This document shows positions 2,527 through 31,934 of a stretch of 64,000 nucleotides of DNA, in pieces. Position 1 is the stretch's first letter; every line of letters starts with the position of its first letter. The translations under genes and the position numbers were made by a program. This DNA is from a virus, in IMG/VR virus record IMGVR_UViG_3300035703_000059, positions 1 through 64,000 of that record; one strand, given 5' to 3'. The notes below the pieces were generated by a model. That model was given only the letters and a program-made list of their open reading frames with translations, did not search any database and had not been told where the DNA came from.

Positions 2527-3246
2527 ATGCCGCTCCTTACCATCAAGCTGCAACGCGTTCCCAACGTCCTCGGCATCTATGGCAAGTCGAAGGACGAGTT
2601 CCCGCAGTCGGCGTCGTGGCTCCACCCGGACGCCGCTCGCGGGTTCGCGGCTCTGCAAGCCGGCCTCGGCCAGCGGGTGCGCGTTTCTGACGTGTTTCGG
2701 ACCGCTGAGCAGTCGCTCGCGGCGCGCGCCATGAAGTCCGGCGTTCAGCCGCCGGGGTTCTCGCTCCACAACTACGGCATCGCCATCGACATCCACACCG
2801 ACGCCATGCTCGCGGCGCTCAAGCTGGACAAGCCGGCCCTCGACAAGCGGTTCACCGAACACGGGTGGTTCTGCCACCGCAAGGACGGCAAGCGCGGCAT
2901 GGAGGATTGGCACTTCAACTTTCTCGGTGTCGGCGACGAAGCCGCGCCGTTCCTCGCGGCGAGCGCGAAGTCGTCGAACACGTCGGCCGCCGGGGATGCG
3001 AAAATCCGCGCGATTCACGGCGACGACTTGACGCTGACCCCTGCGGAGGCGCAGGAAGCGCTGAAAAAGCTGCGGATGTACCACGGCGACCTCGACGGCA
3101 AGTTCGGTCCCCGGTCGCAGCAGGCGCTCATGGTGTTCCAGCGGGCGTGGAAGCTCGTTGACTCCGGCGTGCTGGACGCCAAGACTGAGCGAACACTCGC
3201 CTACGTCACCGCGAATCGCGTCGAACTCGACCCGGCGTCGGTCTAA
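2527..3246 (+). CDS. Endolysin: M15/VanY-type peptidase plus C-terminal peptidoglycan-binding domain
   Basis: Zn-peptidase motifs SLHNYGIAIDI and EDWHF. PG_binding_1 motif DGKFGPRSQQALMVFQRAW-KLVDSGVLDAKT. Confidence 0.9.
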   Translation: MPLLTIKLQRVPNVLGIYGKSKDEFPQSASWLHPDAARGFAALQAGLGQRVRVSDVFRTAEQSLAARAMKSGVQPPGFSLHNYGIAIDIHTDAMLAALKLDKPALDKRFTEHGWFCHRKDGKRGMEDWHFNFLGVGDEAAPFLAASAKSSNTSAAGDAKIRAIHGDDLTLTPAEAQEALKKLRMYHGDLDGKFGPRSQQALMVFQRAWKLVDSGVLDAKTERTLAYVTANRVELDPASV

Positions 3247-10746: not shown

Positions 10747-10756
10747 GGGGAGCAGC

Positions 10757-10960
10757 ATGGAAACGCGTGTGGACTGCTACGGCTTGAAGGTGACGCGCTC
10801 GGTGAAGGGCGACCGCGAGATTTACACGCGGGAAGACGGACTGATTGTCGCGTACCCGATTGGGCGAGGGTGGGGGCGAGCGATGCAGGTCATCGAGGCG
10901 CACATCCCGGCGGGGCATCCTGCCGCGTTGACGACCGAGGGACCGGCGACGGCTGGGTAG
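10757..10960 (+). CDS. Small hypothetical protein
   Basis: METRVDCYG..., RBS GGGGAG, immediately after the fibre gene. Confidence 0.55.
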   Translation: METRVDCYGLKVTRSVKGDREIYTREDGLIVAYPIGRGWGRAMQVIEAHIPAGHPAALTTEGPATAG

Positions 10961-10993
10961 TCCAACCATCGATTCCGGTGTACGCTGCCGGGC

Positions 10994-11767
10994 ATGGCGA
11001 ATGGATGGAATCCCCTCATCGGCATCGGCTTCACCAGCCTCGGCATTGGCTACCTGTGGGAAGCCTACTCTCGTAACAAGACCGGGACGCCGGCAACACC
11101 GGCGGAGCCGATCACGACGAACGGCCTGCGGAGGCGGCTTCCCCCCGGCTCAACGGGCCTCGGCTACGCGGAGCCGAAAAAGGGAGGCATCCGCTCGATG
11201 AAGATGCACGCGGTCGGCACCATCGAGGACCGTGAGCGGTACATTCGCGAGCAGATCAAGAAGGACAGCCTCAACCCGAAGGTCATCAGCGCGGCGCGCG
11301 CGGTGGTGTCGGGCCGCTGCCCGAAGGCCGACGGCGGCGTGATGTGGTGCGTCAAGCCGAAGGACTCGATGGGCGAGATTCGGCTGATGTTCAAGGCCGT
11401 CGTCGACCCGAACTCGGCGCTCGCGGTGCGCTACACGCGCGACCACCCGACCGTCGACCTCTTTCCGTCGAACGAACTGCTGGACCGTCTCCCCGCAGAG
11501 GACTGCGACGGGATGGTGGTGCGGCTCGGCGCGCTTCTGCGGGCCATTGGATTCCACGTTCGCACGCGCATTGTGGCGCCGGCCGGAAAGCCGAAACAAT
11601 GGGCGCACATCTATCTGATGGTCGCGCCTGTGCCGGGTGTCGCCGACGGATGGTTGCCGCTGGACCCGACGGAGCCGGAGCGCGCGTATCGTGCGCGAAA
11701 CGCGCCGTTTTGGGAGCCGGGAACGGACCAGATCGATCCGCTGAAACTGGACGGGCCAATCATCTAA
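10994..11767 (+). CDS. Membrane-anchored transglutaminase-like cysteine enzyme (putative protease)
   Basis: N-terminal TM. Catalytic-type triad in EDCDG...ALLRAIG...WAHIY...WLPLDPT. Confidence 0.85.
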   Translation: MANGWNPLIGIGFTSLGIGYLWEAYSRNKTGTPATPAEPITTNGLRRRLPPGSTGLGYAEPKKGGIRSMKMHAVGTIEDRERYIREQIKKDSLNPKVISAARAVVSGRCPKADGGVMWCVKPKDSMGEIRLMFKAVVDPNSALAVRYTRDHPTVDLFPSNELLDRLPAEDCDGMVVRLGALLRAIGFHVRTRIVAPAGKPKQWAHIYLMVAPVPGVADGWLPLDPTEPERAYRARNAPFWEPGTDQIDPLKLDGPII

Positions 11768-11786
11768 GACAACAGGGAGTCCGCGC

Positions 11787-12107
11787 ATGGCCGACAACGG
11801 TGAGAAGTTGGAGGGACTGCTCGACGAACGGTATCGCCCGTCGTTTCGACTGATGGTTGGAATGGGCGTAGGGGTGGGCGTGCTGACGTTCCTCATCAGC
11901 CAAGCAGAGGCGTTCGTCGAGGCGCGCATCGATAAGCGGGTGCTGGCGGGGAACGCGCTGGTGGAGATTCAGACCAAGCGACTTGAGAAGGTGGAGTACC
12001 GGGTCGACGAGGTTCGCGAGGCGGTGATGGAGATTCGCGCCGACGTGCGGACCTTGCGCGAGTCGCGAAACGTCCCGCCGCCGCCGGCCATCCGAAAGGC
12101 GGAGTAG
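11787..12107 (+). CDS. Small TM plus coiled-coil protein
   Basis: LMVGMGVGVGVLTFLI helix followed by a charged coiled coil. Confidence 0.65.
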   Translation: MADNGEKLEGLLDERYRPSFRLMVGMGVGVGVLTFLISQAEAFVEARIDKRVLAGNALVEIQTKRLEKVEYRVDEVREAVMEIRADVRTLRESRNVPPPPAIRKAE

Positions 12108-12110
12108 CCG

Positions 12111-13316
12111 ATGTCGTGTGAGGTCGTCGCCGGAGAAGCCGCAGACGGTTCCGTCGTGTTGACGGACAATCAATGCCGCACGCTCGACATTCAGAACGTG
12201 CTGGCGTTGTCCGACGGGGCCGGAAACCACGCGGCCTGCGGCTCCAAGGCGTGCGTCTACGAGACGAGCGACCCGTCCACGCTGGTCAAGGTGACGAGCG
12301 ATTGGATGGACGTGTGGGCGCTGAAAAAGACGGCCGGGATGGCGGACGTCGTTCCCGTGAAGCGGATGTTCAAGCTGAAGGGGAAGCGGCGTTCGGTGAA
12401 CGGAGTGGCCGAGAACGCGCTGTACGCCATCGAGGTCGCCCGCGCGCAGCCGCTATCGAAGCGCGACGAGTTGTTCCTCAACACGACGGCGTTCGACGCG
12501 ATCACGCTCTACTTCGACCAGATGCTCCTCCCCGGCGTCTCGCCGAAGAGCGTCATTGATTTTCGCGAGTCGTGTCGAAAGACGGTGGATGCGGCGCGGC
12601 GCGGCGGGAAGCCGTACATGACGACGCCGCAGGCCGACCAAGCGGCGTGCGAGGCCGTGACGAGCGACGCGCTCGATGCGGTGGAGCGGATGGCGAAGCG
12701 CGGCGTCTACTTCACCGACGCCCACGCGGGAAATTGGGGCCGGTACAACGGGCGGCTGGTGGCGCTCGATCTTGGGCTTTCAGCACCGCGAGGGACACGG
12801 ACCCCGAAGGTGCCAGAACTTGAAGGGATGGGCGCGATGAACGACCGGAAGATGCAAAACATGGTGCTGTTCGGCGCGGGCGCGCTGATTCTGTTCCTGC
12901 TTCTGCGGCCGAAGAAGGCCAAGGCGGAGACGTCGCTGCCCGGCAGCGGCACCGGCAGCGGGGAGTCGATCTCGTCGCTCGGCGAGCGGCCCATCGCGCT
13001 CGACCCCGCGTTCGCGAGGGCTTACGGCCCCGTCAAGGCGTACACGGTTCGCCGGGGTGACAGCCTGTCGAGGATCGCCCAGCGCGAGTTTATGACTGAG
13101 GAACTGTGGCCGTTCCTGTGGGACATCAACCGGACGGCGACGCAGTTCGCGGTTCCCGATGCGCTGGAAATCGGCCAGACCATCTACGTCCCGACGCGAG
13201 GCTCAACGAATCGGGCATACTACACGCGGTTCGACGCGCACAAGACGTGGTACATGAGCGGCGGTCGCGGTGTTCCGCCGGAGTCTGTTTCTTCGTTCAC
13301 CGTCATCGCGCTCTGA
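12111..13316 (+). CDS. Protein-kinase-like domain / TM helix / LysM fusion
   Basis: Kinase-like motifs GSKACVY, LVKV, FTDAHAGN and DLG. TM VLFGAGALILFLLL. LysM motif YTVRRGDSLSRIA...INR...PDALEIGQTIYVP. Confidence 0.8.
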   Translation: MSCEVVAGEAADGSVVLTDNQCRTLDIQNVLALSDGAGNHAACGSKACVYETSDPSTLVKVTSDWMDVWALKKTAGMADVVPVKRMFKLKGKRRSVNGVAENALYAIEVARAQPLSKRDELFLNTTAFDAITLYFDQMLLPGVSPKSVIDFRESCRKTVDAARRGGKPYMTTPQADQAACEAVTSDALDAVERMAKRGVYFTDAHAGNWGRYNGRLVALDLGLSAPRGTRTPKVPELEGMGAMNDRKMQNMVLFGAGALILFLLLRPKKAKAETSLPGSGTGSGESISSLGERPIALDPAFARAYGPVKAYTVRRGDSLSRIAQREFMTEELWPFLWDINRTATQFAVPDALEIGQTIYVPTRGSTNRAYYTRFDAHKTWYMSGGRGVPPESVSSFTVIAL

Positions 13317-13327
13317 GGAGTTGGCCC

Positions 13328-13984
13328 ATGTTCGCCCTTCGATATGACCGTCGCCCCGCGCGGCCGACCAACCTCGGCGAGCCGCTGACCGGCGGCACGG
13401 CGCTGTTCCTGTACCTCGGCGGGGGCGCGCTGCTCCTGTCGCTGTTTGGGCGCGGGAAGAAAAAGGCGGCCGACACGTCGACTTCTACTTCACCGTCGCC
13501 GACGTCTGATTCTGCGGCGGGGGCGATACGAGATGCGGCCAATCGGGTCGCTGACTTCACTCCTCCCCAGCTTGCGCCGTTCGTTCCGCCGGGGGGGTTT
13601 CTCATACTGGCGCCCGACATCATCCAGTTGGCGAAGGGGTCGTTCGCGAAGCGCGTGGGCGGACGCTGGTACATCGGGGGCGAGGGCGCGGAGGAGAAGA
13701 ACCCGGAGTTCACGCCGGAATGGTGGCGGAGCAACGAATCCGCAGACGTGAAGGACCGCGTCAACAGCGTGGGCTACGAGCGGTGCCGAAGCCTTCGGAA
13801 CTACTCGACGAAACAGCCGAATACCAAGGCGGACTGCGCGCACCTCATCAGCGGGGAGAGCATGGAATACTGCGTGTTCAAGAAGAACGTGCGGGCGTCG
13901 GCTGAAGAACTGAACAAGAACTGCGCGGGCAAGCTGCCGAACGACATTTACATCGCACAGGACACCGGCACCTACGGGTGGTGA
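13328..13984 (+). CDS. N-terminal TM protein with Cys-containing C-terminal domain
   Basis: Start ATG 13328 after GAGGAG. TM TALFLYLGGGALLLSLF followed by KKK. Confidence 0.65.
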   Translation: MFALRYDRRPARPTNLGEPLTGGTALFLYLGGGALLLSLFGRGKKKAADTSTSTSPSPTSDSAAGAIRDAANRVADFTPPQLAPFVPPGGFLILAPDIIQLAKGSFAKRVGGRWYIGGEGAEEKNPEFTPEWWRSNESADVKDRVNSVGYERCRSLRNYSTKQPNTKADCAHLISGESMEYCVFKKNVRASAEELNKNCAGKLPNDIYIAQDTGTYGW

Positions 13985-13995
13985 GGAGAGAATCG

Positions 13996-14421
13996 ATGGC
14001 GCTTGATCCAGAGGTCGCACGTCGCTTCGACGACGTGGAGAAGTTGCTCAAGCTGGTGCTGATGGCATCGGGGTCGTCGTTGCCGACGACGAGCGTGGCG
14101 ACGAGTTTTTCGGGCAATCAGATCGGGACGACGGACCGCTATCTGAACCTGTGGACGAACACCTACGACCGGCTCATCGCGCTGAAGATCGTGGGCGCGT
14201 TCGCGATTCCGGGTGCGACGGCGAAGCTGTCGCTGGAGCAGTCGGATGCGGGGCTGATCGAGGTGCTGTCGTCGACCGGCAAGGTCATCAGCGACACCAT
14301 CTGGCTCAAGCCGGGGCAGCGGCTCTTCATCAACACGAACGACGTCGTGTTCACGCTGAACGGTTCGACGTTCAGCGTCCTCATGTTCGACGGCATCAAC
14401 TACATGGAGTTCGTGCGATGA
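13996..14421 (+). CDS. Beta-rich putative virion protein
   Basis: Start context GGAGAGAATCG-ATG. Alternating hydrophobic beta pattern. Confidence 0.6.
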   Translation: MALDPEVARRFDDVEKLLKLVLMASGSSLPTTSVATSFSGNQIGTTDRYLNLWTNTYDRLIALKIVGAFAIPGATAKLSLEQSDAGLIEVLSSTGKVISDTIWLKPGQRLFINTNDVVFTLNGSTFSVLMFDGINYMEFVR

Positions 14422-15422
14422 CCCTCTCCCGCGTGCGTCAGTTCGTCCTGTCGATTCACCGTGAAATCGTGGTGGCGTTCCTCGCGGCGTTGACGGTGAC
14501 GTTCGCCGACTGTGCGGCGCAGGCGCAGATCGTCCAGCCGCAGTACGTCCGCCCATCGAAGGGCGCGAGCGTGTTCGTGTTCCCCGGCGCGGACGGCAAG
14601 GGGCTTCCGGCCAACACGAACATCCTCACGAACACCAGCGCCGTCTACGACTTCTCGGCGTTTGAGTCGGCGCAGGTTTTCGTCTCCGCGCAGACGACGT
14701 CGGGTGCAGCGTGCGCGGCCTCGTTCGCCACGGTCACGATCATCGCGCAGGGTTCGTTTAGCAAGACGACGGGATTCGTGAACGTCGCCGACCCCTACGG
14801 CGCTTACACGCAGACGGCCTTTGGTGCGTTCGCCGATGCGTACTCGTTGAGTGACCTGCCGACCTACGTCAAGTTCTCGGCGGGGACGGGCGCGAACGCG
14901 GATGCGTCGTGCCGGCTTCAGATCAACATCATCCCGGTGCCGTTCGCCTCGACGGCCAACGTGCAGGGGCGAGTGGCGGCAAACGGGACGTTCCTCGGCG
15001 CGTACCCGGTCCTCATGGGTGGCTCGGACTACGTCGCTCCGCCAAACCAGCGTGCGCGGATGCTGAAGGTGGACTCCAACGGCGCGATCAGCGCGACGAC
15101 GTTGAGCAGTCGGTACTTCTACACGAACCAGACCCTCACATCGATTCCGTCGGGCGCGGCGACGCGCGTCTTGACGGTGACGGTGGCAGAGGAGGGCGCG
15201 CGGCTTCAGAACGCCGGAAACCAGACCCTCTACTGCGGGTTCGCGTCGACGGCGTCCTCGGCGTCGTACAGCTTCGCGCTCAAGGCGTCGGCGTCGCCCG
15301 ACGACGGCACCGGCGGCGTCATCGACCTGCCATACAAGGGTCAGCCGACGAGCGGCATCTGGTGCGCGGTCAGCGGCGTGACGGCCGGTACGCTCGCGTC
15401 GTTCACCTACGTCCACCCGTAA
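14418..15422 (+). CDS. Beta-rich S/T/A-rich putative spike/vertex protein with signal-like N-terminus
   Basis: ATGA overlap with the previous gene. IVVAFLAALTVTFADCAAQA resembles a signal peptide. Confidence 0.6.
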   Translation: MTLSRVRQFVLSIHREIVVAFLAALTVTFADCAAQAQIVQPQYVRPSKGASVFVFPGADGKGLPANTNILTNTSAVYDFSAFESAQVFVSAQTTSGAACAASFATVTIIAQGSFSKTTGFVNVADPYGAYTQTAFGAFADAYSLSDLPTYVKFSAGTGANADASCRLQINIIPVPFASTANVQGRVAANGTFLGAYPVLMGGSDYVAPPNQRARMLKVDSNGAISATTLSSRYFYTNQTLTSIPSGAATRVLTVTVAEEGARLQNAGNQTLYCGFASTASSASYSFALKASASPDDGTGGVIDLPYKGQPTSGIWCAVSGVTAGTLASFTYVHP

Positions 15423-15432
15423 GGAGTCATCG

Positions 15433-15666
15433 ATGGCAGAGCTTCCGAAGAAGAACTCCAAGAGCGCGGTCGCGCTTGCGTTTGCGCTGGGGACCGGCGC
15501 GGGTGCCGGCGGGCATCAGCTTTCCGTGAACTCGCCGGTCCATCTGACGACGATGGGCGAGACGCCGATTGCCGACGAGTGGGTGTGCGAGCCGGAGGGG
15601 GGCATTTTCGACGCCCCGGTCATTTGCAGGTACAAGACGGTGTCCGCACCGGACGCTGGAAACTAA
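15433..15666 (+). CDS. Small hypothetical protein
   Basis: Start context AAGGAGTCATCG-ATG. Hydrophobic N-terminal region. Confidence 0.6.
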   Translation: MAELPKKNSKSAVALAFALGTGAGAGGHQLSVNSPVHLTTMGETPIADEWVCEPEGGIFDAPVICRYKTVSAPDAGN

Positions 15667-15678
15667 AGGAGACGAGTC

Positions 15679-17160
15679 ATGGCACAGGTTCAGCTTGAAG
15701 AACTGATTTACGCAGAGAGTCTCGACAACAGCGCGGGTCCGCAATACGATCTTCCGCTGCTGAGTGTGGACATCGGTCCCGCGACGTGGGTCGGCACGAT
15801 GGGTGACGGCAGCGTGACGCCGCTGTCCAAGTATTTTGCCGCGCAGCTTCAGCGGGCGGCGGCTCTCGTCAACCCGTCCGACGCGCTGCCCTTGTTCAAG
15901 GCGTTGGTGAGCATCCAGACGCTCAAGAACGGCCAGCCTACCCCGGCGGTGGGCGGAAGCTCGGTTGGCAGCGTCGTGACGTTCTACGCCACGATTCCGG
16001 CCGCGTACATCGGGTCGTTCGTGTGGGGCATGACGCCCGACTCGACCGGCGGCTGGGCGCTTCCCGGTGGAGGAGCGGCTGGTGGCGGCGGTGGCGGAGG
16101 GGGTGCGCCGAGTGGTCCCGCTGGCGGCGTGCTGGACTACGTTGAAATCGATGGCGTCACGAACCCCTCGACCTACCCCAACCCGAACGGCCTTGCGGTG
16201 GTGGTGGACGACGGCGGCGGCGTTTGGCGAATCCCCGTTCGCAACAACGATCCGGGGAAAACCACCTTGGCGATTGGTCCCGACGCAAACAATCCGTTTA
16301 GCGGTGGCACCGAGACTTGGAGTTTCCGAGGGCCGGACGGGGCCGCGACCAACGATCCGCTGATCAATGCCGACGACGGCGTGAAGGCTGAGATTCGCTC
16401 TGGTCGTGGCGGCGATAGTTTGCCGAACGATGTGACGGCGACCGCGAACGGCGGCGCCGGGGCGGAACTTTACGTTTGGGCCGGCGACGGTGGTCAAGGC
16501 GGTGGTGGTGGTGGCGCTGCGGGCGGTGGCGGTGGCGTAACTGTGCGCGCCGGATATGGCGGCCCCGGAGGCGCGGGTGTCGCTGGCGGGCCACCCGGTG
16601 ACGGCGGTGACGCGGGGATTACCGCCGGATACGGCGGCACCGGGTCCGCTACCCATCCAGCAGGAAAAGGCGGTCGGCTTCTTCTCTACGCTGGTGACGC
16701 CGGAAGCGACGTCGGTGGCGGCGTTGGAGCCGGTGGGAATGTCATCATCAAGGGCGGTAATCGGTCTGACAACGGCGCCGCCGGGAACAACGGCCGAATT
16801 TTGCACGACTCCGTTTCGTCTTTCGCGGCGCTTCAAAGCGTCAACATCACCGCCGTAACGACTCAGTTCGGGTTCGTGAACAGCCCGGTCATCGCCATCG
16901 ACAGCGACGCGGCCTACGTCATGGCCCCGGCCGGCAAGCTGATCGAGGACGGAAGCGAGGACGGCGACACCGTGACGATCCAGAACGTCGGCATCTTCGC
17001 GATCACGCTTCAAGGTGAGGCGACGTCTGCCGGCTCGAACCTTCTGATCGGCGGCGGATCATCGAGGCAGCTCAGCCCCAACGGCGGAAACATCACGCTG
17101 CGATGGTCCGACAATTTCACCAAGTGGATCGAGATCGCCTTCGCGGGGTCTGTGACCTAG
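15679..17160 (+). CDS. Glycine-rich fibre protein
   Basis: Repeated G-rich/beta units (ELYVWAGDGG, VTVRAGYGG, LLLYAGDAG) and a beta-rich C-terminal head. Confidence 0.75.
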   Translation: MAQVQLEELIYAESLDNSAGPQYDLPLLSVDIGPATWVGTMGDGSVTPLSKYFAAQLQRAAALVNPSDALPLFKALVSIQTLKNGQPTPAVGGSSVGSVVTFYATIPAAYIGSFVWGMTPDSTGGWALPGGGAAGGGGGGGGAPSGPAGGVLDYVEIDGVTNPSTYPNPNGLAVVVDDGGGVWRIPVRNNDPGKTTLAIGPDANNPFSGGTETWSFRGPDGAATNDPLINADDGVKAEIRSGRGGDSLPNDVTATANGGAGAELYVWAGDGGQGGGGGGAAGGGGGVTVRAGYGGPGGAGVAGGPPGDGGDAGITAGYGGTGSATHPAGKGGRLLLYAGDAGSDVGGGVGAGGNVIIKGGNRSDNGAAGNNGRILHDSVSSFAALQSVNITAVTTQFGFVNSPVIAIDSDAAYVMAPAGKLIEDGSEDGDTVTIQNVGIFAITLQGEATSAGSNLLIGGGSSRQLSPNGGNITLRWSDNFTKWIEIAFAGSVT

Positions 17161-17186
17161 TTCGGTCATCAACTAGGAGCGCATCG

Positions 17187-17588
17187 ATGGCGTCGTGTCC
17201 GGTCATCCGCAAAGAGTTTCAGCGCCTCACGAACATGAGCGCCGCTGAGATTCGGTCGTGGGCGAAGGATGACCGGGCGAAGTGCTTTTCGCAGAAGGCA
17301 ACGCGGCGACGGCTCACGCAGCCCTCAATCTATCGAGGGCATCGTGTGCCGTCGCTCGCGAACCTTCGCAAGCGCGCCTTCACGGGGGCGTGGTCGGAAG
17401 AGGACTGCTGGTACGGGAACATCGTCAACGGGTTCAACAAGCGGTTCTTGAAGATGAAGCAGAAGCACGGCTGTACGGACGGGATCGTCGTCGCGCTGCG
17501 GAATTGGGGCCACCAGCCGAAGTCGTGCGCGGTCCCGACGAAGAAATGCAAGCGCGAGCATGAGCCGCGCGTATCGAAGAAGGGATGA
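17187..17588 (+). CDS. DUF3140-like basic protein
   Basis: FQRLTNMSAAEIRSW...VALRNWGHQP matches the DUF3140 pattern (NM..EL..W ... SL.NWGHDP) as I recall it. Confidence 0.65.
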   Translation: MASCPVIRKEFQRLTNMSAAEIRSWAKDDRAKCFSQKATRRRLTQPSIYRGHRVPSLANLRKRAFTGAWSEEDCWYGNIVNGFNKRFLKMKQKHGCTDGIVVALRNWGHQPKSCAVPTKKCKREHEPRVSKKG

Positions 17589-17592
17589 GGCC

Positions 17593-18507
17593 ATGACGCG
17601 GCTTGAGGCACAGCGGGATGTCGAGACGGCGCAGCTACAAGCGGAGGCGAAGTATCAGTCCCTTCTGAACCAGCAACGCACGGCGGGACGCAGGGCTGTC
17701 GCAGCGAGCAAGGTGTCCGCGATCAAGACGAACCTCATCGATGTCGCGGAGAAGGCACAGAAGGCGGTGCTGGACTCCGAGAAGCTGATCGCGGGCAACA
17801 TCGGCACCTACGGCATCGCCAGCGGAGCGCTTCGTCGGGAGATCGAGAACAACATCGCCTACGCCAAGCGGTTCACGACGTTGTTCGTGCAGGCCGCGCG
17901 GGACTTCAAAGAAACGGGGCAGTTTTTCCGGGTGGCAGGGTCGTCGCGCGATCCGGCGGGCCTTACGGTCGTGGGCGACCAGTTCAACAGCGGCACCTTG
18001 CTTGCGAACTACGTTGACTTGACCTACGCGACGTCGGTGGCTCTCGGCGCGCAGGGCGACTCGTTGCAGGGCGGCGTCATCACCAACCTGTTCCCGAACT
18101 TGACCGACGCCGTGGCGGTGCCGCTGATGAAGGGTGTCGCGGGGCTGTGGGACGTCGTCAAGACGCTGGGGCAGGCCGGCGTCGATATGGCACAGTTCCT
18201 CGCCGACATTCTCAAGAAGCTGCCGAAGATTGGCGGGTTCGCGCTCGATTGGCTTCCGTGGGTGCTGGCGGTCGTGATCATCGGCCCGCCGCTCATTCGC
18301 ATCATTCTCGCGGGTCGTCGGCGCGGTGCAGACGCGGCGCTGGAAGAGACAGGCGCGACGTTGACTGAGGGGCGCGAGGCGATCACCAGCGGCGCGCGAA
18401 AGGCGGGGTCGATGGCCGTTCGCGGGGGCAAGGTGGCGGCGGCGGCCTACACCGGAAATCCCGCGCTTGCAATCTCTGGATTGTCGAAACGCGCACGTCG
18501 CCGGTAA
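17593..18507 (+). CDS. Helical membrane protein
   Basis: Coiled-coil N-terminus. TM WLPWVLAVVIIGPPLIRIIL. Confidence 0.7.
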   Translation: MTRLEAQRDVETAQLQAEAKYQSLLNQQRTAGRRAVAASKVSAIKTNLIDVAEKAQKAVLDSEKLIAGNIGTYGIASGALRREIENNIAYAKRFTTLFVQAARDFKETGQFFRVAGSSRDPAGLTVVGDQFNSGTLLANYVDLTYATSVALGAQGDSLQGGVITNLFPNLTDAVAVPLMKGVAGLWDVVKTLGQAGVDMAQFLADILKKLPKIGGFALDWLPWVLAVVIIGPPLIRIILAGRRRGADAALEETGATLTEGREAITSGARKAGSMAVRGGKVAAAAYTGNPALAISGLSKRARRR

Positions 18508-18516
18508 AGTGAAAGA

Positions 18517-18846
18517 ATGGCCTACGGCGCTCGTCAGAACTTGATGATTCGGTCCTATCTGCTCATCGCGGCGAAGCTCGGTGGGTGGACGAAGGACGCG
18601 GGAGCCGATGGCGCGGCCTACGTCTCGCCGGCACAGAATCCCAACCGGGAAAAAGGTGGGGTGTGTCGGAACTGTGCCTTCTGGAACGGGTCCGACGGGT
18701 GCGCGATTGTGAAGGGGCCGATTGCCGCCGAAGGGCTGTGCAAGCTGTGGGTCATCGATGAGTCGCGGCTGGGGGCCGGGCGCGTCGATGGCCGTCTCGC
18801 CGGTCGACCGATGTCGCTTGAGGTCGTGCCGCCCAAACGTCGCTGA
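18517..18846 (+). CDS. HiPIP-like four-cysteine protein
   Basis: Y...CRNCAFW...CAIVKGPIAAEGLCKLW follows the HiPIP ligand spacing. Confidence 0.7.
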   Translation: MAYGARQNLMIRSYLLIAAKLGGWTKDAGADGAAYVSPAQNPNREKGGVCRNCAFWNGSDGCAIVKGPIAAEGLCKLWVIDESRLGAGRVDGRLAGRPMSLEVVPPKRR

Positions 18847-22067: not shown

Positions 22068-22148
22068 GTCAACCCCTACACGCCCCCACATTGACTTTCG
22101 AAGATGAACTTCGAAAGGATGGGGGCAGCAGAAAGAAGGAGACACCCC

Positions 22149-22784
22149 ATGTACGACTACGGCATGAACGGTTTTGCGGGTCTGATGGACGACATCAAGT
22201 CGAGCGCCGGTGAGGCGTTCGCTGGCGGCGCCGGCCTCGTTGTCGGCGTGAGCCTTGCCAAGTTCGTCACCGCCAAGGTGGACAAGGCGGTTTCGGAGAT
22301 GGAGGCGGGCGCTGGGAAGGACGCGCTCGGCTACGTCACCCCGGCCATCCCGCTGGTTCTCGGCCTTGCGCTGTACGCGAAGTTCCGCAACAGCCCGTCG
22401 CTCGCGGCTCGCAGCCTCGGCGCGGCGAACGGCGCGGGCATGATCGCCTTCTCGCTGGCGACCTACGCCAAGAAGCTGATCGGCCTGTCGAAGAGCGAGG
22501 GCGCCACGGCGGCGGCCAGCTACATCGGCCTCGGCGCGGTGGACACCTACGAGTCCCCGATCCTCGCCGGCCTCGGCAACTACGGCCCGATCAGCGAGTA
22601 CCTCCGCCCCAGCCTCGGCGCTTACGGGATGCGGTCGCCGGGCGCTCCGGTGTTCGTCGAGGACGCTGGCATGGCCGGCGCCCCGACGCAGTTCCAAGAG
22701 GTTCGTGGCAGCGTGAACGGCCTGCACGGCGCTCCGTCGTCCATCGAGATTGTTCCTTCCGCTCTTTCCTCGGTTCTGATGTAA
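22149..22784 (+). CDS. Multi-TM putative major membrane protein directly upstream of the capsid candidate
   Basis: Three hydrophobic segments and several GLG/GMAG motifs in the tail. RBS AAGGAG. Confidence 0.7.
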   Translation: MYDYGMNGFAGLMDDIKSSAGEAFAGGAGLVVGVSLAKFVTAKVDKAVSEMEAGAGKDALGYVTPAIPLVLGLALYAKFRNSPSLAARSLGAANGAGMIAFSLATYAKKLIGLSKSEGATAAASYIGLGAVDTYESPILAGLGNYGPISEYLRPSLGAYGMRSPGAPVFVEDAGMAGAPTQFQEVRGSVNGLHGAPSSIEIVPSALSSVLM

Positions 22785-22863
22785 GAAGCCCCGCGCCGGC
22801 ATCGATGCCGGTGCATTGACCCCCAACTGACGCCTGCGGGCGTCGCTCGACAGGAGAACTACA

Positions 22864-23499
22864 ATGGCCGTTCTGCGTCCCACTTCCGAAACTGGCGTGT
22901 ACGAGGTCGAAGGTCTTGGCACCAAGATCCGTTTGATCGAATGGCGTGCCGGCTCCTTCTATGACTCGGTGGCCTTCGCCGCCGGCGCCATCACCCCCGG
23001 CACCAACCAGCTTCTCTTCCAGAACCTCCAGAACAAGAACCGCCAGCACACCAATCTCGACAACAACGCTGGCCGTCTGCCCGCGCTGACCGAGCTGATC
23101 TGCAACCGTATCGGCGCGCACATCACGCAGGCCGTCGGCAGCAGCGTCACCGTCGACACCGACATCATCCAGCTTGCTCACGCGGCTTATATGCAGGTCT
23201 TCGTGAACCAAGATCGCCGGGTCGCGGACCAGCCGCTCTACACCTTCCAGAGCGGCTACGGCATCACCGGCACCACGACCCGCAACGCCACCGGCGTTGT
23301 GACGACCGGCGTCGCGTCGGCCGCTGCGGCTCCGCAGCTTCTCGTCGCGCAGCCCATCGGCCCGAACGACGCGCTGACCGGCAAGATTCAGGTTGACGCG
23401 GCGACGTGGATCGCCGGCTACGCGAACCCCTCGCTGGCCGCGACCAACGTCGTGACCGTGTTCCTCGACGGCCTCATCAAGAAGCCGCAGGGCGCGTAA
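22864..23499 (+). CDS. Candidate major capsid protein (single jelly-roll)
   Basis: 211 aa, beta-rich, no TM. FYDSV...LLFQ...K...TNL...GRLP...ICNRIG and terminal VTVFLDG resemble single-jelly-roll capsid-like proteins as I recall them. Strong RBS and codon bias. Confidence 0.6.
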   Translation: MAVLRPTSETGVYEVEGLGTKIRLIEWRAGSFYDSVAFAAGAITPGTNQLLFQNLQNKNRQHTNLDNNAGRLPALTELICNRIGAHITQAVGSSVTVDTDIIQLAHAAYMQVFVNQDRRVADQPLYTFQSGYGITGTTTRNATGVVTTGVASAAAAPQLLVAQPIGPNDALTGKIQVDAATWIAGYANPSLAATNVVTVFLDGLIKKPQGA

Positions 23500-23615
23500 G
23501 TCTCCCCGACCATCGATTCCCCCGTCGATGGGGGCGCGAGCCGTCAATCCTCACGGATTGGCGGCTTTCGCCTTTGTGGGGTATGCTCGCCGCGACTCAC
23601 CCGTAAGGAGACTCC

Positions 23616-24188
23616 ATGCAGATCGCACCGCCTCCCGATAACGCCTATATCCAGACGCTTACGTCGCGGATCATCGAAGGCCGAACGATCACGCCCTACG
23701 ACTATCGCGCGATGGTGCTTCCGCTCTACACCACGCTGTCGACGTCGCAGCCCATCGGAAGCGCGACCTACACGATCCCGACGAATATGCGCTTCCGCGT
23801 GCGAAGCATCCTGCCGCACGTTGCGCCGCTCCGCGTGTCGGCGGAGACGATTGCGAACCCCGGCAACTTTGCTCCGCAGAACGTGGCGGGTGACGTGTTC
23901 GACGGCGGCGACGTCATCGACCGTCTCTATGCGAAGGCGATGAACTGCCGCATCAACATCGCGATGCAGAGCCGCGCGTTCGACCTCACCTACAACCAAG
24001 CGTTCGCGATCTCGGACCTCATGGCGGAGAACGGACAGGGTCCGAGCTTCCTCGATATGCCGGGTCTGATTCTGCAAGGAACGACCATCGACTTGAACGC
24101 CGCGCTCATCGATACCGACGCCGACGTGATCGGCAGCCCGACCGAGTACGGCATCGTTCTCGTCGGCGCCTTCATCCGCGTGGACTAA
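23616..24188 (+). CDS. Candidate second jelly-roll capsid protein (paralog of the 24200 ORF)
   Basis: Shares AKA.N.R and terminal TEYG..L.GAF.R with the next ORF. Confidence 0.5.
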   Translation: MQIAPPPDNAYIQTLTSRIIEGRTITPYDYRAMVLPLYTTLSTSQPIGSATYTIPTNMRFRVRSILPHVAPLRVSAETIANPGNFAPQNVAGDVFDGGDVIDRLYAKAMNCRINIAMQSRAFDLTYNQAFAISDLMAENGQGPSFLDMPGLILQGTTIDLNAALIDTDADVIGSPTEYGIVLVGAFIRVD

Positions 24189-24199
24189 GGGGAAAAACC

Positions 24200-24838
24200 G
24201 TGGCGATTCTGACTCCCGCTCCGATCAACTTTCAGCAGAAAATCCGCAGCGAACTTGCGGAGGCTCTGCGGCTGAACTTCGGCGACATCTTTCCGACCAT
24301 CCTGCACCTTCGGGTGACGCTGGGCGGGACGCTGAACCCCGGACCGCCCCCGACGGTGACGCTGCCGACCCCCGGCAACGACATCTTCCGCATCCCCGGC
24401 GACTACTCGCTGCTCGTCGGCGAGATTCGCGGCCACATCGCGCTCAACGAACTGTCGCAGGAGTCGACGACGGCTCCGACGAACACGGGCCTTCTGAACA
24501 TCGCCGGTGTGCGTAACCGCGTCGTCGCCAAGGCGCTGAACGCGCGCATGGTGCTGGTCAACGCGGACCGCGACAATCTGAAGTTCGTGGAGACGGACAT
24601 CGCGAACAGCGCGAACCCGCTGGGCATCAGCGCGAACCTCTGCCTCGCGAACCTGCTCCCGGCGGCCGGTGGCTCCCCGATCAAGCTGATCGGGGACGGC
24701 GACGTCATGCCGCTCATCGTGCCGGGCAACGAGCGCATCAAGCTGACCGTCGCACTCAACGACGAGAACGCGTCGCTGGGCCAGACGGAGTACGGACTGA
24801 CGCTGATGGGCGCCTTCGTGCGTTCGCGGGGTAGCTGA
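24200..24838 (+). CDS. Candidate third jelly-roll capsid protein
   Basis: AKALNAR and TEYGLTLMGAFVR match AKAMNCR and TEYGIVLVGAFIR in the 23616 ORF. Confidence 0.5.
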   Translation: MAILTPAPINFQQKIRSELAEALRLNFGDIFPTILHLRVTLGGTLNPGPPPTVTLPTPGNDIFRIPGDYSLLVGEIRGHIALNELSQESTTAPTNTGLLNIAGVRNRVVAKALNARMVLVNADRDNLKFVETDIANSANPLGISANLCLANLLPAAGGSPIKLIGDGDVMPLIVPGNERIKLTVALNDENASLGQTEYGLTLMGAFVRSRGS

Positions 24839-26631
24839 TGAAAACGGTCGCCGACCAAGTGCGTGAAATCCGCGCCGCTCTCATCGCGCAGCACAAGCGC
24901 GAGGGCGTCGGCGACATCGCCTCCGCGAAGATGCAGACCGAGCGCGAACTGGCGCTCACGAAGATCTACGGGGGCGTCCCCGGCTACTACGGCCCGCCGC
25001 CGCCCTCGCGTGGTCTGAGTGCGGTGTCGAACGCGATCTGCCCGCCGGGATTCAAGCGGGACCGCGTCTCCAATCAATGCACCGTCGCCATCGAAGAGAA
25101 CCCGTCGTACCTGCCGGGCATCACCGAGTTCCAAGGCCCGACGCTGATGCAGAACTCGCGCGTCGACAACTTCGTCATGCAGGCGCCGAAGTTCCGTGCG
25201 CCGACGATGCTGTCGGGCCTCGGTGATCTGTCGACTGATGCCCCGTGGCCGGCGTATACCGCGACTGAGTTGACGTGCAACGCGTTCAGCGGAGACGATG
25301 GGTATGCGAAATGGTCGATGTCGCAAAAAGTCAACCAAGCGGTAATCAAATGGGTGGCCTACTGGAGAAATCCGAATAACACCAGCCCCTCCGGCGGCAC
25401 CGTATCTTCTCTTCGCGCCGATTTGATCACGGAGAGGGATGTCACGGACGAATTCAAAAACGCGGTTCGCAAGCGAAACCCCTGTCGCCCCTCTCACATC
25501 GATGCGCTAGTCCGCGCCTTCCCGCCGGGCCGTGGGGCCGGCGTGCTGGCGTGTGAGACAACCTATGAGTGCGCCAAGTACGGCAAGGTCTGCGTGAACG
25601 GGGTGTGCGAGGGTCAGTTAGTGTTCTGCGAGAAGACTGATGACTGCCAGAAGCTCGACTTTACCTACGTCTGCTCCAACGAAATCAGCTCCGTTCGTCC
25701 CCAGCCGCACGCGATATATAGTGCGCCTTACTGCACGCCAGCCCGCGCTAACGAAGTTGCGTTGTGGTCGGCCAAGAAGCGTGCAGCGGCGGCGGCAGCA
25801 ACGGCTGAAGCTCGCGCCTTGCAGCAATCCGCGAATCGCGCCCAGCAGGCCCGTCAGCGTGCCGCATCCGGTGCTTCGGCACGAACGGCGGCCATCGAGA
25901 GCGCCATACCCAGCATTTCTGCGTCGAAGTCTGCGGGGCGCGCGCGGGCAGCCGTTGCCGCAGCGGCAGCAGCAGCGGCGGCTCGCGGCGTTGGTCCGGG
26001 GACATCGACGATGTCGCCGGCCGATGCAGCGGCTCGTCAGCGCGCGGCGGCGGCCGTAGCTGCGGCGGCGGCTGTGGCGCGAGGACGCGGCCTTACGCCG
26101 GGAGCAGGCGCGGCGGCGGCCGATATGTCGCGCGCGGGCCAGCAGGCCACCGCCGACGCGGCGGCAGCGCAGGCGGCGCGTCAATCGTCGGCCGACAAGG
26201 CGGCGTGCCGACCGGAGTGCAAGACGGGCGAGGTCGCGGAGCGCATCCCCGGCACGAAGTGCTATCGATGCGTCGTTCCGCCGCTCCCGACCGACACGAA
26301 GCCACCCGAAACCAAGGTGTGCGACCCCGGATTCGTTCTCAACGCCGACGGCGGCTGCGTTCCGGCCACGCAAATCGAGCGTCCGCCGGAGTGTCCGGCG
26401 TGTCCGAAGGTGCGATGCCCGTCGTGTCCGCCCCAGCAGTCGTGTCCGACCTGCCCGCCGTGTGACGTCACCGGCGGATACGGTGGCAGCGGCGGCGGCG
26501 GTAGCGGCGGCGGTGGGGGTGGCGGCGTCACCTACATCGACAAAGAGTGTCCGGCCTGCCTTCAGAAGAAACCGAGCATTTGGCCGTGGGTGGTCGCCGG
26601 CGTTGCGACCCTCTACGCTGTCACCCGATAA
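24838..26631 (+). CDS. Cys-rich, Ala-stalk, C-terminal TM protein
   Basis: Many Cys residues (CPACPKVRCPSCP; CVNGVC...C..DC), a long Ala helix, TM WPWVVAGVATLYAV. Confidence 0.75.
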   Translation: MKTVADQVREIRAALIAQHKREGVGDIASAKMQTERELALTKIYGGVPGYYGPPPPSRGLSAVSNAICPPGFKRDRVSNQCTVAIEENPSYLPGITEFQGPTLMQNSRVDNFVMQAPKFRAPTMLSGLGDLSTDAPWPAYTATELTCNAFSGDDGYAKWSMSQKVNQAVIKWVAYWRNPNNTSPSGGTVSSLRADLITERDVTDEFKNAVRKRNPCRPSHIDALVRAFPPGRGAGVLACETTYECAKYGKVCVNGVCEGQLVFCEKTDDCQKLDFTYVCSNEISSVRPQPHAIYSAPYCTPARANEVALWSAKKRAAAAAATAEARALQQSANRAQQARQRAASGASARTAAIESAIPSISASKSAGRARAAVAAAAAAAAARGVGPGTSTMSPADAAARQRAAAAVAAAAAVARGRGLTPGAGAAAADMSRAGQQATADAAAAQAARQSSADKAACRPECKTGEVAERIPGTKCYRCVVPPLPTDTKPPETKVCDPGFVLNADGGCVPATQIERPPECPACPKVRCPSCPPQQSCPTCPPCDVTGGYGGSGGGGSGGGGGGGVTYIDKECPACLQKKPSIWPWVVAGVATLYAVTR

Positions 26632-26642
26632 GGAGAATCGAT

Positions 26643-27950
26643 ATGGCTAACAATCGTCGAAACGTGGTCCCCAGCCAGATTGCCCCCCAGCTTATGCAGA
26701 TGCGCGATCTGTCTGCCGGCAACGACATCTACCGTCAGTCGCGCCGCGCCGTCGAGGCGATGGCCGCGCTGGAGCGTCGGCGTCAAATTCTGACGTCGAA
26801 GGGCTACGTCTCTGAGGCGGGCCGCACGTTGCAGGGCATGGCGGATGTGTTCGCCGCCGCTCCGACGCTGCCGGAACTGGAGAACGCGATCAAGCAGCTT
26901 CTCCCCGACGGCTCCATCGTCAGCGGTCGCGAGTATTACGACCGCATCCAGAAGCAACTGAACCCGGTCTGGTACAACGGCGGCTACTCCCGCCCCTCGG
27001 ACTTCAACGAGTTCGTCAAGCAGAACCTCAAGGTGACGAACTACCCGGCCGAGTACCAGCCCTACGTCATGCCGGGCGTGCAGGCCGCGTCGTACTTCTA
27101 CGTCACGCAGCAGGCGCAGAAGGCCGGTTCGGCTCTCAGCGGCTTCAGCCCCGCTCCGCGCAGCGTCGTCGAGGGCGCGCGCATGGAGGAGCAGGCGCGC
27201 AAGAAGGCTGTGGCGCTGATGGCGCTCGCGGGCCTTGGGCGAATCGGTAAGGGCGTTGAGCGTTGCTGGGGATTCAACTGCCCCGACGAGACGGGTGACT
27301 TTGAGTTCACGGTTCCCGCGTCGATTGTGAATTCCAAGCTGACGGGCATCGATTACTTGAAGATGAACACGTCATGGATGTCGGGGACGGCGGGATGCCA
27401 GACCGAAATCACCAATAAGTCCGGCGGCAAGGTGTTCGGCCTCGCCATCGATGACGGCGACTCAAACAGCTACAACAACGCCAACGCGATCCGTCGAGTG
27501 AAGGCCGCCGCCGTCGCGCAGGCGCTCTACAAGGTGGGCGGCGAGGCGTACTTGACGCTTCCCAACCTCTACACCTATGGCGCCATGAAGGCGCATGACG
27601 TGCGAGAGCTTGAGCAGCTTATCCGCACCTATGGTACGGCAGACCGGATTGCAGCCAGCGCACAGAAACCGCCCGACACGTTGTTCGGGGACGGGTCGAG
27701 TTCTCGGTCGAGTAGCTGTAAATTCGACATGGGTAAGATGCCCTCGCTGGACGACGTGGCGAAGGTTTGGGACACCGTTTCGTCGCGGATTCCCGGCGGC
27801 GGCGGAGAGGTGACTCCTCCTCCGGGCGGCGACACGCCTCCCCCCGACGACGAGGAGAAGGGCGGGATCGATGCGCTGACGATGGTCGGCGTCGTCGGCG
27901 TCCTCGCCCTCGGCGGCATCGCGCTCTACTTCGCGCGCCAGAACCGATAG
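26643..27950 (+). CDS. C-terminally anchored membrane protein
   Basis: Start context AAGGAGAATCGAT-ATG. Pro linker, then TM MVGVVGVLALGGIALYF. Confidence 0.75.
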   Translation: MANNRRNVVPSQIAPQLMQMRDLSAGNDIYRQSRRAVEAMAALERRRQILTSKGYVSEAGRTLQGMADVFAAAPTLPELENAIKQLLPDGSIVSGREYYDRIQKQLNPVWYNGGYSRPSDFNEFVKQNLKVTNYPAEYQPYVMPGVQAASYFYVTQQAQKAGSALSGFSPAPRSVVEGARMEEQARKKAVALMALAGLGRIGKGVERCWGFNCPDETGDFEFTVPASIVNSKLTGIDYLKMNTSWMSGTAGCQTEITNKSGGKVFGLAIDDGDSNSYNNANAIRRVKAAAVAQALYKVGGEAYLTLPNLYTYGAMKAHDVRELEQLIRTYGTADRIAASAQKPPDTLFGDGSSSRSSSCKFDMGKMPSLDDVAKVWDTVSSRIPGGGGEVTPPPGGDTPPPDDEEKGGIDALTMVGVVGVLALGGIALYFARQNR

Positions 27951-27960
27951 GAGGCGTGTC

Positions 27961-28218
27961 ATGGCTTGTTCCGCAGACGTTTTGACGAAGTACCCGGCCG
28001 GCACGCTTGAGAACTACAAGCGGTATCCCAACGTCCAGTTCGCGAATGAGTGCTGGTACGGCTACGACGGCGTCAACACGGTCGTTTGGGCGCAAGATCC
28101 CGCCGTGCTTTACAAGGGGCAGGTCGACGACAAGATGAGCACCACGCAGATGATCGGGTGGGGCGTTCTTGGCCTCGCCCTCGTCTACGGGATCTGGTCA
28201 GCGTCGAAGAGCCGATAA
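27961..28218 (+). CDS. Small C-terminal TM protein
   Basis: TM IGWGVLGLALVYGIW. Confidence 0.7.
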   Translation: MACSADVLTKYPAGTLENYKRYPNVQFANECWYGYDGVNTVVWAQDPAVLYKGQVDDKMSTTQMIGWGVLGLALVYGIWSASKSR

Positions 28219-28230
28219 CCGGGAGAAGCC

Positions 28231-28818
28231 GTGGCCGAAACTCGTCGATTTTCACAGGCCAACGACTTCGGATTCGTCAACCGTCAAGACGACGAGGTGA
28301 TGTGCGCCGCAAGCGGCGCCGTGCCGTATCGGACGGTCTGCCAAGTCATCGATGACGCGGCGATCTACTACGCAACCGCCGGGGAAGGCGCCCTGCTCGA
28401 CATCCGGCGCTGGTACAGCCAAAGCCCCGAATTCTTCCCCGGCTCGTTCCTCCCGGCGGGCGCGATTCCGGCGTTCTACCGGGCGATTCTGGCGCGTGCG
28501 TTTTTCGCCGAGTTTGGCGGCGCGAACTTCGTCCCGACGCTTCGGCAGATGATCGTCGTGCTGAACATGGTCGAGGAACCGCGCGGGCGTGAGGACGACT
28601 ACGCCAAGACGCGGACGGCGGTGAAGGCGATCCTCGGCGTGTGCGAAAAGACGTTCAACGGACAGCCCGCGTGCAGTCCGGGGGAAATATCGTGGGCCGC
28701 AGAGCGGATGAACGCCCTTGATCGGGCAGAAACCGCCGGCCCCGGCGTCAACATGATGCTCATCGCCGTTCCGGCGCTCTTGTTTGCGGGCGCGCTGCTG
28801 CTTCGGCGGCGCGGGTAG
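28231..28818 (+). CDS. C-terminal TM protein
   Basis: TM MLIAVPALLFAGALLL followed by RRR. Confidence 0.7.
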   Translation: MAETRRFSQANDFGFVNRQDDEVMCAASGAVPYRTVCQVIDDAAIYYATAGEGALLDIRRWYSQSPEFFPGSFLPAGAIPAFYRAILARAFFAEFGGANFVPTLRQMIVVLNMVEEPRGREDDYAKTRTAVKAILGVCEKTFNGQPACSPGEISWAAERMNALDRAETAGPGVNMMLIAVPALLFAGALLLRRRG

Positions 28819-28827
28819 GGGAACGCG

Positions 28828-31731: not shown

Positions 31732-31925
31732 GCGCGCCGAAAGTGATCAAGACGATGCAGTTTCCGACGCCGACAGCGGCGAAGCAGTACCTCGCGCAGA
31801 TGGGGGCGCAGTACCGCAAGATCGACGAGTTGACCGGCAAGCCGCTCTACAAGACCCCGGCGGGCATCGTGTTCCGCCCGTCGTCACCGCAGGCGCTTGA
31901 AGTGCTTGCGAACTGTGTGTGCTAG
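31728..31925 (+). CDS. Small hypothetical protein
   Basis: ATGA overlap with the SLT gene. MSAPKVIK...NCVC. Confidence 0.6.
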   Translation: MSAPKVIKTMQFPTPTAAKQYLAQMGAQYRKIDELTGKPLYKTPAGIVFRPSSPQALEVLANCVC

Positions 31926-31934
31926 GAGTCATCG

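Follow-up and report, generated by a model that had tools for sequence, protein, structure and literature searches.

Organization of the Locus

The window analyzed here is a stretch of 64,000 nucleotides that spans positions 1–64000 of IMGVR_UViG_3300035703_000059, a complete 75,406-bp IMG/VR virus record with direct terminal repeats. The gene of interest lies in the late arm (window 1–36400, + strand), within an operon rich in membrane proteins, and encodes a 401-amino acid (aa) protein with a kinase-like N-terminal domain, a single transmembrane (TM) helix, and a LysM domain (table 1). Its open reading frame (ORF) opens at the first ATG, 3 nt past the stop codon of the upstream gene and 6 nt after a ribosome-binding site, GGCGGAG. 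GC content at third codon positions is 0.63–1.0 across all 30-codon windows of the ORF, and the other frames are stop-rich. The motifs quoted in a first-pass annotation of the letters alone (GSKACVY, LVK, FTDAHAGN, DLG, and LEGMG) are all present in the uninterrupted ORF, and the kinase–TM–LysM architecture is confirmed.

Continuity of the gene was checked on assembled contigs, not on raw reads. A 74.6-kb contig from the probable source sample shows zero differences across the gene, and the domain junction is bridged, with no stop codon and no indel, by contigs from three other studies. Contig X4 spans 12746–12896 and is identical to the window. Contig X6 spans 12663–12932 and differs by three letters, the two with a listed position being third codon positions. 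Contig X2 spans 12829–12932 and carries conservative hydrophobic substitutions within the helix. A missed stop between the domains, the artifact about which the first-pass annotation had cautioned, is found in none of these bridging contigs. Freshwater runs and a run labeled fungus metagenome, all of studies other than that of the probable subsurface source sample, also gave contigs with near-identical pieces of the gene, and a small share was seen in a drinking-water run.

Table 1. Positions of the kinase–TM–LysM gene, its parts, and other features of the late arm, in window coordinates
Feature	Position	Strand	Basis or remark
VanY-type peptidase with PG_binding_1, likely endolysin	2527–3246	+	Pfam/PHROG
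Transglutaminase (TGase)-fold enzyme, N-terminally anchored, invariant C171, H205, and D224	10994–11767	+	Alignment, model
106-aa TM and coiled-coil protein, translationally coupled upstream gene	11787–12107	+	Conserved in L002 and L018
Kinase–TM–LysM ORF	12111–13316	+	401 aa, no interruption
Minimal protein-kinase-like domain (aa 1–∼235), predicted	12111–12815	+	Conservation, profile versus PDB, model, fold searches
K60 codon, ATP-anchoring lysine of strand β3	12288–12290	+	Invariant in family
Catalytic loop D203-A-H-A-G-N208	12717–12734	+	Conservation; aligned to YopO catalytic loop
D220-L-G, DFG counterpart	12768–12776	+	Conservation; profile alignment
L237-E-G-M-G junction motif, candidate processing site and fusion point	12819–12833	+	L237 at least 90% conserved at kinase end
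M243 ATG, possible internal start	12837–12839	+	AAGGGA 8 nt upstream
Hydrophobic TM helix, aa 248–265 (model helix 245–265)	12852–12905	+	Hydrophobicity, model, substitutions in X2
Gly/Ser-rich linker, low confidence, aa 267–300	12909–13010	+	Predicted local distance difference test (pLDDT) score <50 at 268–291
LysM domain, aa 308–361	13032–13193	+	Pfam, model
C-terminal helix, aa 368–382, conserved, always after the LysM variant of the 401-aa protein	13212–13256	+	Model, family comparison
218-aa protein with basic stretch, N-L-G, TM helix, and Cys-rich domain; downstream gene	13328–13984	+	
L-x-G-[LM]-G sites within 22104–32306	e.g., 22563–22577, 25210–25224, 27225–27239, 31956–31970	+	

The N-Terminal Domain Is Predicted to Be a Truncated, Atypical Kinase

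Residues 1–242 have no significant match in Pfam, NCBIfam, or PHROGs, and only a weak one to phrog_4301 (function unknown). The whole 401-aa protein retrieves only itself in a word-based homologue search, and its sole match by tblastn to 50,697 phage records is the LysM domain of a baseplate protein of an Enterococcus phage. Viral contigs scanned with an alignment of close kinases yielded nothing. A metagenome scan recovered one true relative (contig L002, described below) and ten other loci that match over LysM or a 30-residue stretch only. An exhaustive HMMER search of 1.84 billion representatives identified more than 150 relatives (clusters at 50% identity), most of 220–290 aa; six matches, the query among them, have E < 1e-30. 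The family is almost purely viral, as are the ESM Atlas clusters that come nearest by features (87–100% viral).

Alignments of 47 and 135 members show a common set of conserved residues. K60, T62, D64, and D203 are invariant, and G44, D67, H205, N208, D220, G222, and L237 are at least 90% conserved. The glycine-rich loop has the form C-G-x-x-A-C with a single conserved glycine, G44 (residues 42–50 of the 401-aa protein are ACGSKACVY), K60 lies in the motif LVK, and D64 and D67 fall in the helix after strand β3. The domain also begins with its own N-terminal extension, in which Q21 is nearly invariant. About six cysteines are conserved (near positions 3, 22, 43, 48, 155, and 180), two of which border the glycine loop; a role in a metal site or in disulfides is possible.

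At E ≤ 0.01, eight of the 47 relatives match Pfam Pkinase and eight match ABC1. Two reach APH, nine a PHROG "kinase" family, and five the T7-kinase PHROG. The 401-aa protein itself does not match Pfam Pkinase (PF00069), and none of the family members tested exceeds the curated cut-off of a Pfam model. A profile of the family compared against the PDB matched only protein kinases, with YopO the best (E 1.7e-6) over the catalytic loop and DLG.

The predicted structure agrees with these matches. An AlphaFold model of the 401-aa protein, built on 135 sequences, has a mean pLDDT of 85, rising above 95 for the majority of ten-residue blocks in the N-domain. Among the Foldseek matches listed, all are kinase-fold phosphotransferases (CurKC kinase domain, APH(2''), APH(9), and JNK among others; probability 0.9–1.0). 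The best 50 matches of a VIA all-against-all structural search are all kinases or kinase-fold pseudokinases (Z 7.7–9.6), aligned over 121–170 residues (∼140) at root-mean-square deviations of 2.6–4.9 Å (∼3 Å), and the alignments stop near residue ∼230. They include BRAF, PKR, Rio2 (Z 8.6), PknE, a baculovirus kinase, and TkArkI, a tRNA kinase. The structure bank is dominated by protein kinases and its matches are thus weak evidence on the type of substrate.

The kinase ends ∼15 residues past DLG, with no activation loop, no APE segment, and no αF–αI helices, and in the model no helix occurs after residue 196 before the TM helix. Because the domain ends where it does and lacks these elements, the model indicates that it is a truncated and atypical member of the protein-kinase-like superfamily and not of Hanks type. 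The kinase fold on which the first-pass annotation depended is nevertheless upheld by the confident model, the kinase-only fold matches, and the full catalytic set.

Alternatively, the N-domain may be a small-molecule kinase or ATPase (with a lipid, sugar, wall precursor, or nucleotide as substrate) that is held at the membrane near its substrate. We think this unlikely, given that the family profile recovers only protein kinases among solved structures, that the PHROGs matched by relatives are those of protein kinases, T7 type included, and that the best 50 VIA matches are nearly all protein kinases or pseudokinases, the last being weak evidence given the bias of the bank. Even so, several observations point toward a small molecule. 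The catalytic loop, D-x-H-x-G-N, is of the ABC1/UbiB and APH type, in keeping with the family matches noted above; APH(2'') and APH(9) are among the top Foldseek matches; one structural neighbor cluster in the ESM Atlas carries Kdo kinase; and the C-lobe with which protein kinases bind substrate is absent. Distant relatives of the kinase are also embedded in giant proteins of 1439–2317 aa (P0034, P0039, P0057, P0070, and P0079), where their companion domains are cytidylyltransferase, 2H phosphoesterase, and inorganic pyrophosphatase.

The C-Terminal Half Is a Hydrophobic Helix and a LysM Domain

Residues 311–361 match the Pfam LysM model (PF01476) with 25.9 bits against a curated cut-off of 20.9, and the AlphaFold model predicts the expected β-α-α-β fold (strands at 308–312 and 357–361, helices at 319–327 and 330–340), so that the LysM call made at first sight proves sound. 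This half of the protein also matches the LysM proteins Ecp6 and Kbp, though weakly. No PASTA repeats were matched in the 401-aa protein by Pfam or NCBIfam.

The protein has one hydrophobic stretch and no signal peptide. With a single helix between them, the kinase and LysM should be on opposite sides of a membrane, as had been proposed. Every anchored form in the family has an Arg/Lys cluster on the kinase side of its helix, whether the anchor is N- or C-terminal, and because of this the comparison favors a cytoplasmic location of the kinase. A basic flank, [RW]-P-K-K-A-K-A-E, directly follows the helix (window 12906–12929) and is also present in P0002, P0080, P0091, and P0097, as well as in two separate small TM proteins of contig L018 (12389–12820 and 12830–13396).

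The Fusion Recurs, and Split and Absent Forms Exist

Relatives differ in how they are anchored. Of 150 representatives, 127 were sorted by anchor; the other 23, which include the giant proteins, have no catalytic-loop motif and were left out. Approximately 88 have no hydrophobic segment, ∼11 have an N-terminal anchor, ∼5 have a tail anchor, and eight have TM–LysM. The kinase–TM–LysM layout is thus present in seven other, distant clusters (P0002, P0022, P0062, P0080, P0091, P0097, and P0121), whose kinases are 28–45% identical to that of the 401-aa protein. In a maximum-likelihood tree built with a quick search from 130 kinase domains, the fused forms P0001 and P0002 are a supported pair nested in a supported clade of stand-alone kinases (P0003–P0007 and P0010), and the remaining six fused forms are elsewhere, interspersed with unfused kinases. 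Because fused forms fall in at least two separate clades among unfused kinases, the layout has arisen or been lost at least twice.

Related viruses were located via the better-conserved TGase-like gene that lies two genes upstream (table 1). On a 43-kb IMG/VR contig (L018), the order of genes is TGase-like gene, kinase 1 (264 aa), kinase 2 (279 aa), small TM protein, and a 188-aa protein. The last of these stands alone and has an N-terminal helix followed by a domain that is 37% identical to residues 309–391 of the 401-aa protein (pairwise E 2e-11). The two kinases of this contig are tandem paralogues located straight after the TGase-like gene (10747–12377), and the second has a basic K-L-A-G-V-G leader and no helix. 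On a 6.6-kb metagenome contig (L002), a stand-alone kinase of 251 aa adjoins the TGase-like gene, and the block that holds them is syntenic with window 10994–18846; an M15-type peptidase adjoins this kinase. A complete 85.8-kb relative (G003) has the TGase-like gene and lacks both the kinase and TM–LysM. Two more distant phages (L014 and L015) have N-terminally anchored kinases among replication genes, and in one of the two a distant TGase-like gene is present as well. A word-based search for short stand-alone TM–LysM relatives of residues 243–401 found none; the split form of L018 came via synteny.

Because a split form (L018), a kinase-only form (L002), and an absent form (G003) all occur, the comparison indicates that the kinase is an accessory, mobile module and that the window gene is a fusion of two neighbors. 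The first-pass annotation had asked whether homologues are split into two genes, and the answer is yes: the kinases and TM–LysM of L018 are separate neighbors. It had also proposed a search for the architecture in viruses, and the fused layout occurs in the seven further clusters.

These forms bear on the idea, central to the first-pass annotation, of a sensor that couples wall contact to phosphorylation. Under this idea, the protein is a true receptor kinase in which peptidoglycan fragments bound by the outer LysM alter the activity of the kinase inside, in the manner of PASTA kinases or the LysM receptor kinases of plants. The order of N-terminal kinase, TM helix, and C-terminal wall-binding domain is indeed that of PknB and StkP, and the layout is found in eight clusters, with the fusion retained in at least two clades. 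But the protein has no activation loop, αF–αI helices, juxtamembrane module, or dimerization module, its outer linker is disordered, most relatives are soluble (∼88 of 127) or have other, unrelated anchors, and the halves are separate genes in L018. Because there is no structural basis for signal transfer and split and soluble forms exist, the receptor idea is hard to reconcile with the data, and we consider it very unlikely.

PASTA kinases (PknB, StkP, and PrkC) share the order of a cytoplasmic N-terminal kinase, one TM helix, and an outer, C-terminal wall-binding domain, but they are full Hanks-type enzymes with an activation loop, control by dimerization, and PASTA repeats outside, whereas the 401-aa protein has a truncated, atypical kinase and a single LysM behind a disordered linker. 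Likewise, the LysM receptor-like kinases of plants (CERK1, NFR1/NFR5, and LYKs) have LysM and kinase flanking one membrane helix. They differ in having a signal peptide, three N-terminal LysM, and a C-terminal, full eukaryotic kinase, and the likeness does not imply common descent.

Neighboring Genes and Type of Virus

The product of the TGase-like gene has 65 metagenomic homologues of 39–64% identity. Its model (pLDDT 83) is closest in fold to the pseudomurein endoisopeptidases PeiP and PeiW, followed by TglA, LapG, and transglutaminases. Compared with the 50,697 phage records, its only match is gp34 of SSIP-1, which is annotated as a structural protein. In L002 and L018 the gene is found in linkage with the kinase, and G002 has a distant copy. 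From its model, the enzyme could be a wall peptidase or a processing or maturation protease. The gene between it and the kinase gene encodes a protein with an N-terminal helix that resembles the inner-membrane subunit of a spanin in layout only.

Membrane viruses in general are rich in membrane proteins, and hydrophobic helices occur in ∼20 of the 39 proteins of the late arm, in many cases as C-terminal tail anchors. Pfam and PHROG recognized no terminase, portal, or HK97 capsid on the late-arm ORFs tested, a weak negative that does not show taillessness, and a Walker-A scan of the late arm found no candidate for a packaging ATPase. SSIP-1 is a membrane-containing phage (PMC6356626). The window shares with it the TGase-fold gene, which matches gp34. 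About half of the late-arm proteins of the window have TM helices. The two viruses differ in that they are joined by only two weak protein links, in genome size (75.4 kb versus 43.8 kb), and in that SSIP-1 has no kinase of the family and no TM–LysM homologue. Taken from sequence, the content of the late arm fits a membrane-containing, perhaps tailless, virus.

A Conserved Motif at the Junction of the Two Halves

The junction between kinase and helix carries a motif that is not particular to the fused protein. Kinase domains of the family, stand-alone forms included, end in L237-x-G, and kinase and anchor are separated by a linear motif of a basic cluster followed by L-G-[AG], often with x-D-P, in the same N-to-C order whether the anchor is at the N- or the C-terminal end. 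Late-arm proteins contain L-x-G-[LM]-G six times, against an expectation of 0.73 ± 0.82 (none of 150 shuffles reaches six), and the replication arm lacks it, but the motif was chosen after seeing the data. The looser [LIM]xGxG is found 24 times against 16 expected (3 of 150 shuffles reach 24) and is not enriched over all genes (21 versus 17.2 ± 4.2), and LG[AG] is not enriched either. One 226-aa protein (22104–22784, + strand) has four G-L-G or L-G-A sites. A precursor of the adenovirus type, with (M/L/I)-x-G-x-G sites, would be expected to have a conserved site at its domain borders and a cognate protease. Here the motif is conserved and enriched and an enzyme with Cys, His, and Asp is encoded nearby, but the fold of that enzyme also fits a wall peptidase.

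A second product could also arise by initiation at M243. The Shine–Dalgarno-like AAGGGA ahead of it resembles, in form and spacing, the site ahead of the upstream gene, and the stretch that begins at M243 shares with the stand-alone TM–LysM protein of L018 a short N-terminal tail followed by the helix. Because of the conserved L-x-G, the enrichment of the motif, and AAGGGA before M243, junction cleavage or a second start is plausible. A polyprotein cut at LEGMG or an internal start at M243 had been offered in the first-pass annotation as alternatives to the sensor; the support that they have gained is comparative (L-x-G, enrichment, AAGGGA, and L018) and not direct.

Should the gene encode such a precursor or two products, cleavage near L-E-G-M-G or initiation at M243 would yield a soluble kinase, possibly cargo of the particle, and a TM–LysM protein of the viral membrane, and the TGase-fold enzyme would be the protease. 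The cargo kinase would go to the next host and the small TM–LysM protein would bind the wall at entry or exit. We regard this as possible, though with clearly less than even probability. In addition to the junction features described above, the family sequences indicate that the TM piece would, after the cut, be neutral or acidic on its N-flank and basic on its C-flank; the halves are separate in L018, where kinase 2 has the K-L-A-G-V-G leader; and the TGase-like gene, which is linked to the kinase in two relatives and has the invariant Cys, His, and Asp, finds its sole match in a cultured phage in a structural protein. Several points count against it. Residues 236–237 form a short strand of fair confidence in the AlphaFold model, and L237 may simply be part of the fold. 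The looser forms of the post hoc motif are weaker or unenriched, PeiP and PeiW as best folds suggest that the enzyme may be lytic and not a maturation protease, and the word-based search gave no short stand-alone TM–LysM relative. Moreover, retention of fusions in at least two clades suggests that a covalent link has value.

A Proposed Membrane-Tethered Viral Kinase

The reading that we prefer, which we see as about evenly poised between right and wrong, is that the gene is an accessory late gene of an uncultured phage, in a late arm resembling that of a membrane-containing, SSIP-1-like virus, and encodes a membrane-tethered viral kinase that originated by fusion of a minimal kinase gene and a gene for a TM-anchored LysM protein. 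We infer catalytic activity, a protein substrate, the membrane topology, and the role of TM–LysM as a tether. Fusion would have joined two neighboring genes, one for a minimal protein-kinase-like enzyme and the other for a small LysM protein with a TM anchor. The product would be a single-pass membrane protein with its kinase at the cytoplasmic face and its LysM on the wall side, fixing the protein to peptidoglycan. The full catalytic set and the lack of an activation loop make it probable that the kinase is constitutively active, and its substrates would be proteins at the membrane's inner face. The TM–LysM half would serve as a tether or address, comparable to the C-terminal domain of T7 kinase (T7K), and not as a ligand-gated sensor. 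The halves need not stay joined; they may be separable at L-E-G-M-G or made apart from M243.

A number of observations weigh against this interpretation. Host-takeover kinases such as T7K are encoded among early genes, whereas this gene is in the late or structural arm. The D-x-H-x-G-N loop resembles those of ABC1/UbiB, APH, and Kdo kinases as much as those of protein kinases, and the presence of distant relatives in giant proteins with cytidylyltransferase and 2H phosphoesterase makes a nonprotein substrate possible. The glycine-rich loop is reduced to one conserved glycine, and the acidic partner of K60 (D64 or D67) is assigned by inference only. Lastly, the flank after the helix (RPKKAKAE) is more basic than the one before it, and the positive-inside rule alone does not give an N-in/C-out topology here.

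A known parallel to a tethered viral kinase is T7K. The DNA-binding domain at its C-terminus aims the enzyme at nucleic-acid-binding proteins, it is reported to disarm bacterial defenses by mass phosphorylation, and its motif at the DFG position is DPV (PMC13645617). Like T7K (gp0.7; PHROG 15752, PF27024), the 401-aa protein is a phage-encoded, compact kinase fold without classical control by an activation loop, in which a noncatalytic C-terminal part is proposed to direct the site of action. The two are also linked by the 5 of 47 relatives that reach phrog_15752 and by a neighboring ESM Atlas cluster that carries PF27024. Unlike T7K, the 401-aa protein does not match the T7K family, has DLG and not DPV, is encoded in the late and not the early arm, and ends in a membrane helix and LysM rather than in a DNA-binding or shut-off domain.

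Small kinase folds that lack an activation loop or substrate-binding subdomains are also known from Rio2, Bud32-type, and UbiB/ABC1 proteins, and the D-x-H-x-G-N loop is shared with ABC1. UbiB of Escherichia coli also has C-terminal membrane helices. The 401-aa protein is distinguished from these by having no family-level sequence match, its own N-terminal extension with a conserved Gln, and the ∼6 conserved cysteines.

Implications

Phage kinases and LysM anchors are each known, but their combination is not found in a described virus in the literature searched; the search returned neither a phage kinase–TM–LysM protein nor a bacterial protein that combines a Hanks kinase with LysM. The protein is a member of a family of minimal kinases that is large, almost purely viral, without a Pfam model, and both different from and much larger than that of T7 kinase. 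Its repeated anchoring in membranes, by N-terminal helices, by tails, and by TM–LysM in eight clusters, points to viral phosphorylation aimed at the cell envelope. The family also marks an unexplored group of viruses, with a TGase-fold enzyme in common with SSIP-1 and with L-x-G-x-G at domain borders.

A bolder proposal, which we consider quite improbable, is that the kinase is a swappable cargo of undescribed, large (75–86 kb), tailless membrane viruses. It would be tethered to the membrane of the virus via a basic L-x-G-x-G linker that can be cut (in the 401-aa protein, to the wall-binding LysM part), released by the virus-encoded, membrane-anchored TGase-fold protease, and delivered with the genome to phosphorylate proteins of the next host at once. 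If true, the cargo kinase would be the membrane-virus counterpart of the internal proteins and Alt of T4. If L-x-G-x-G is a processing site, it would represent the first maturation-cleavage system in membrane-containing bacterial viruses.

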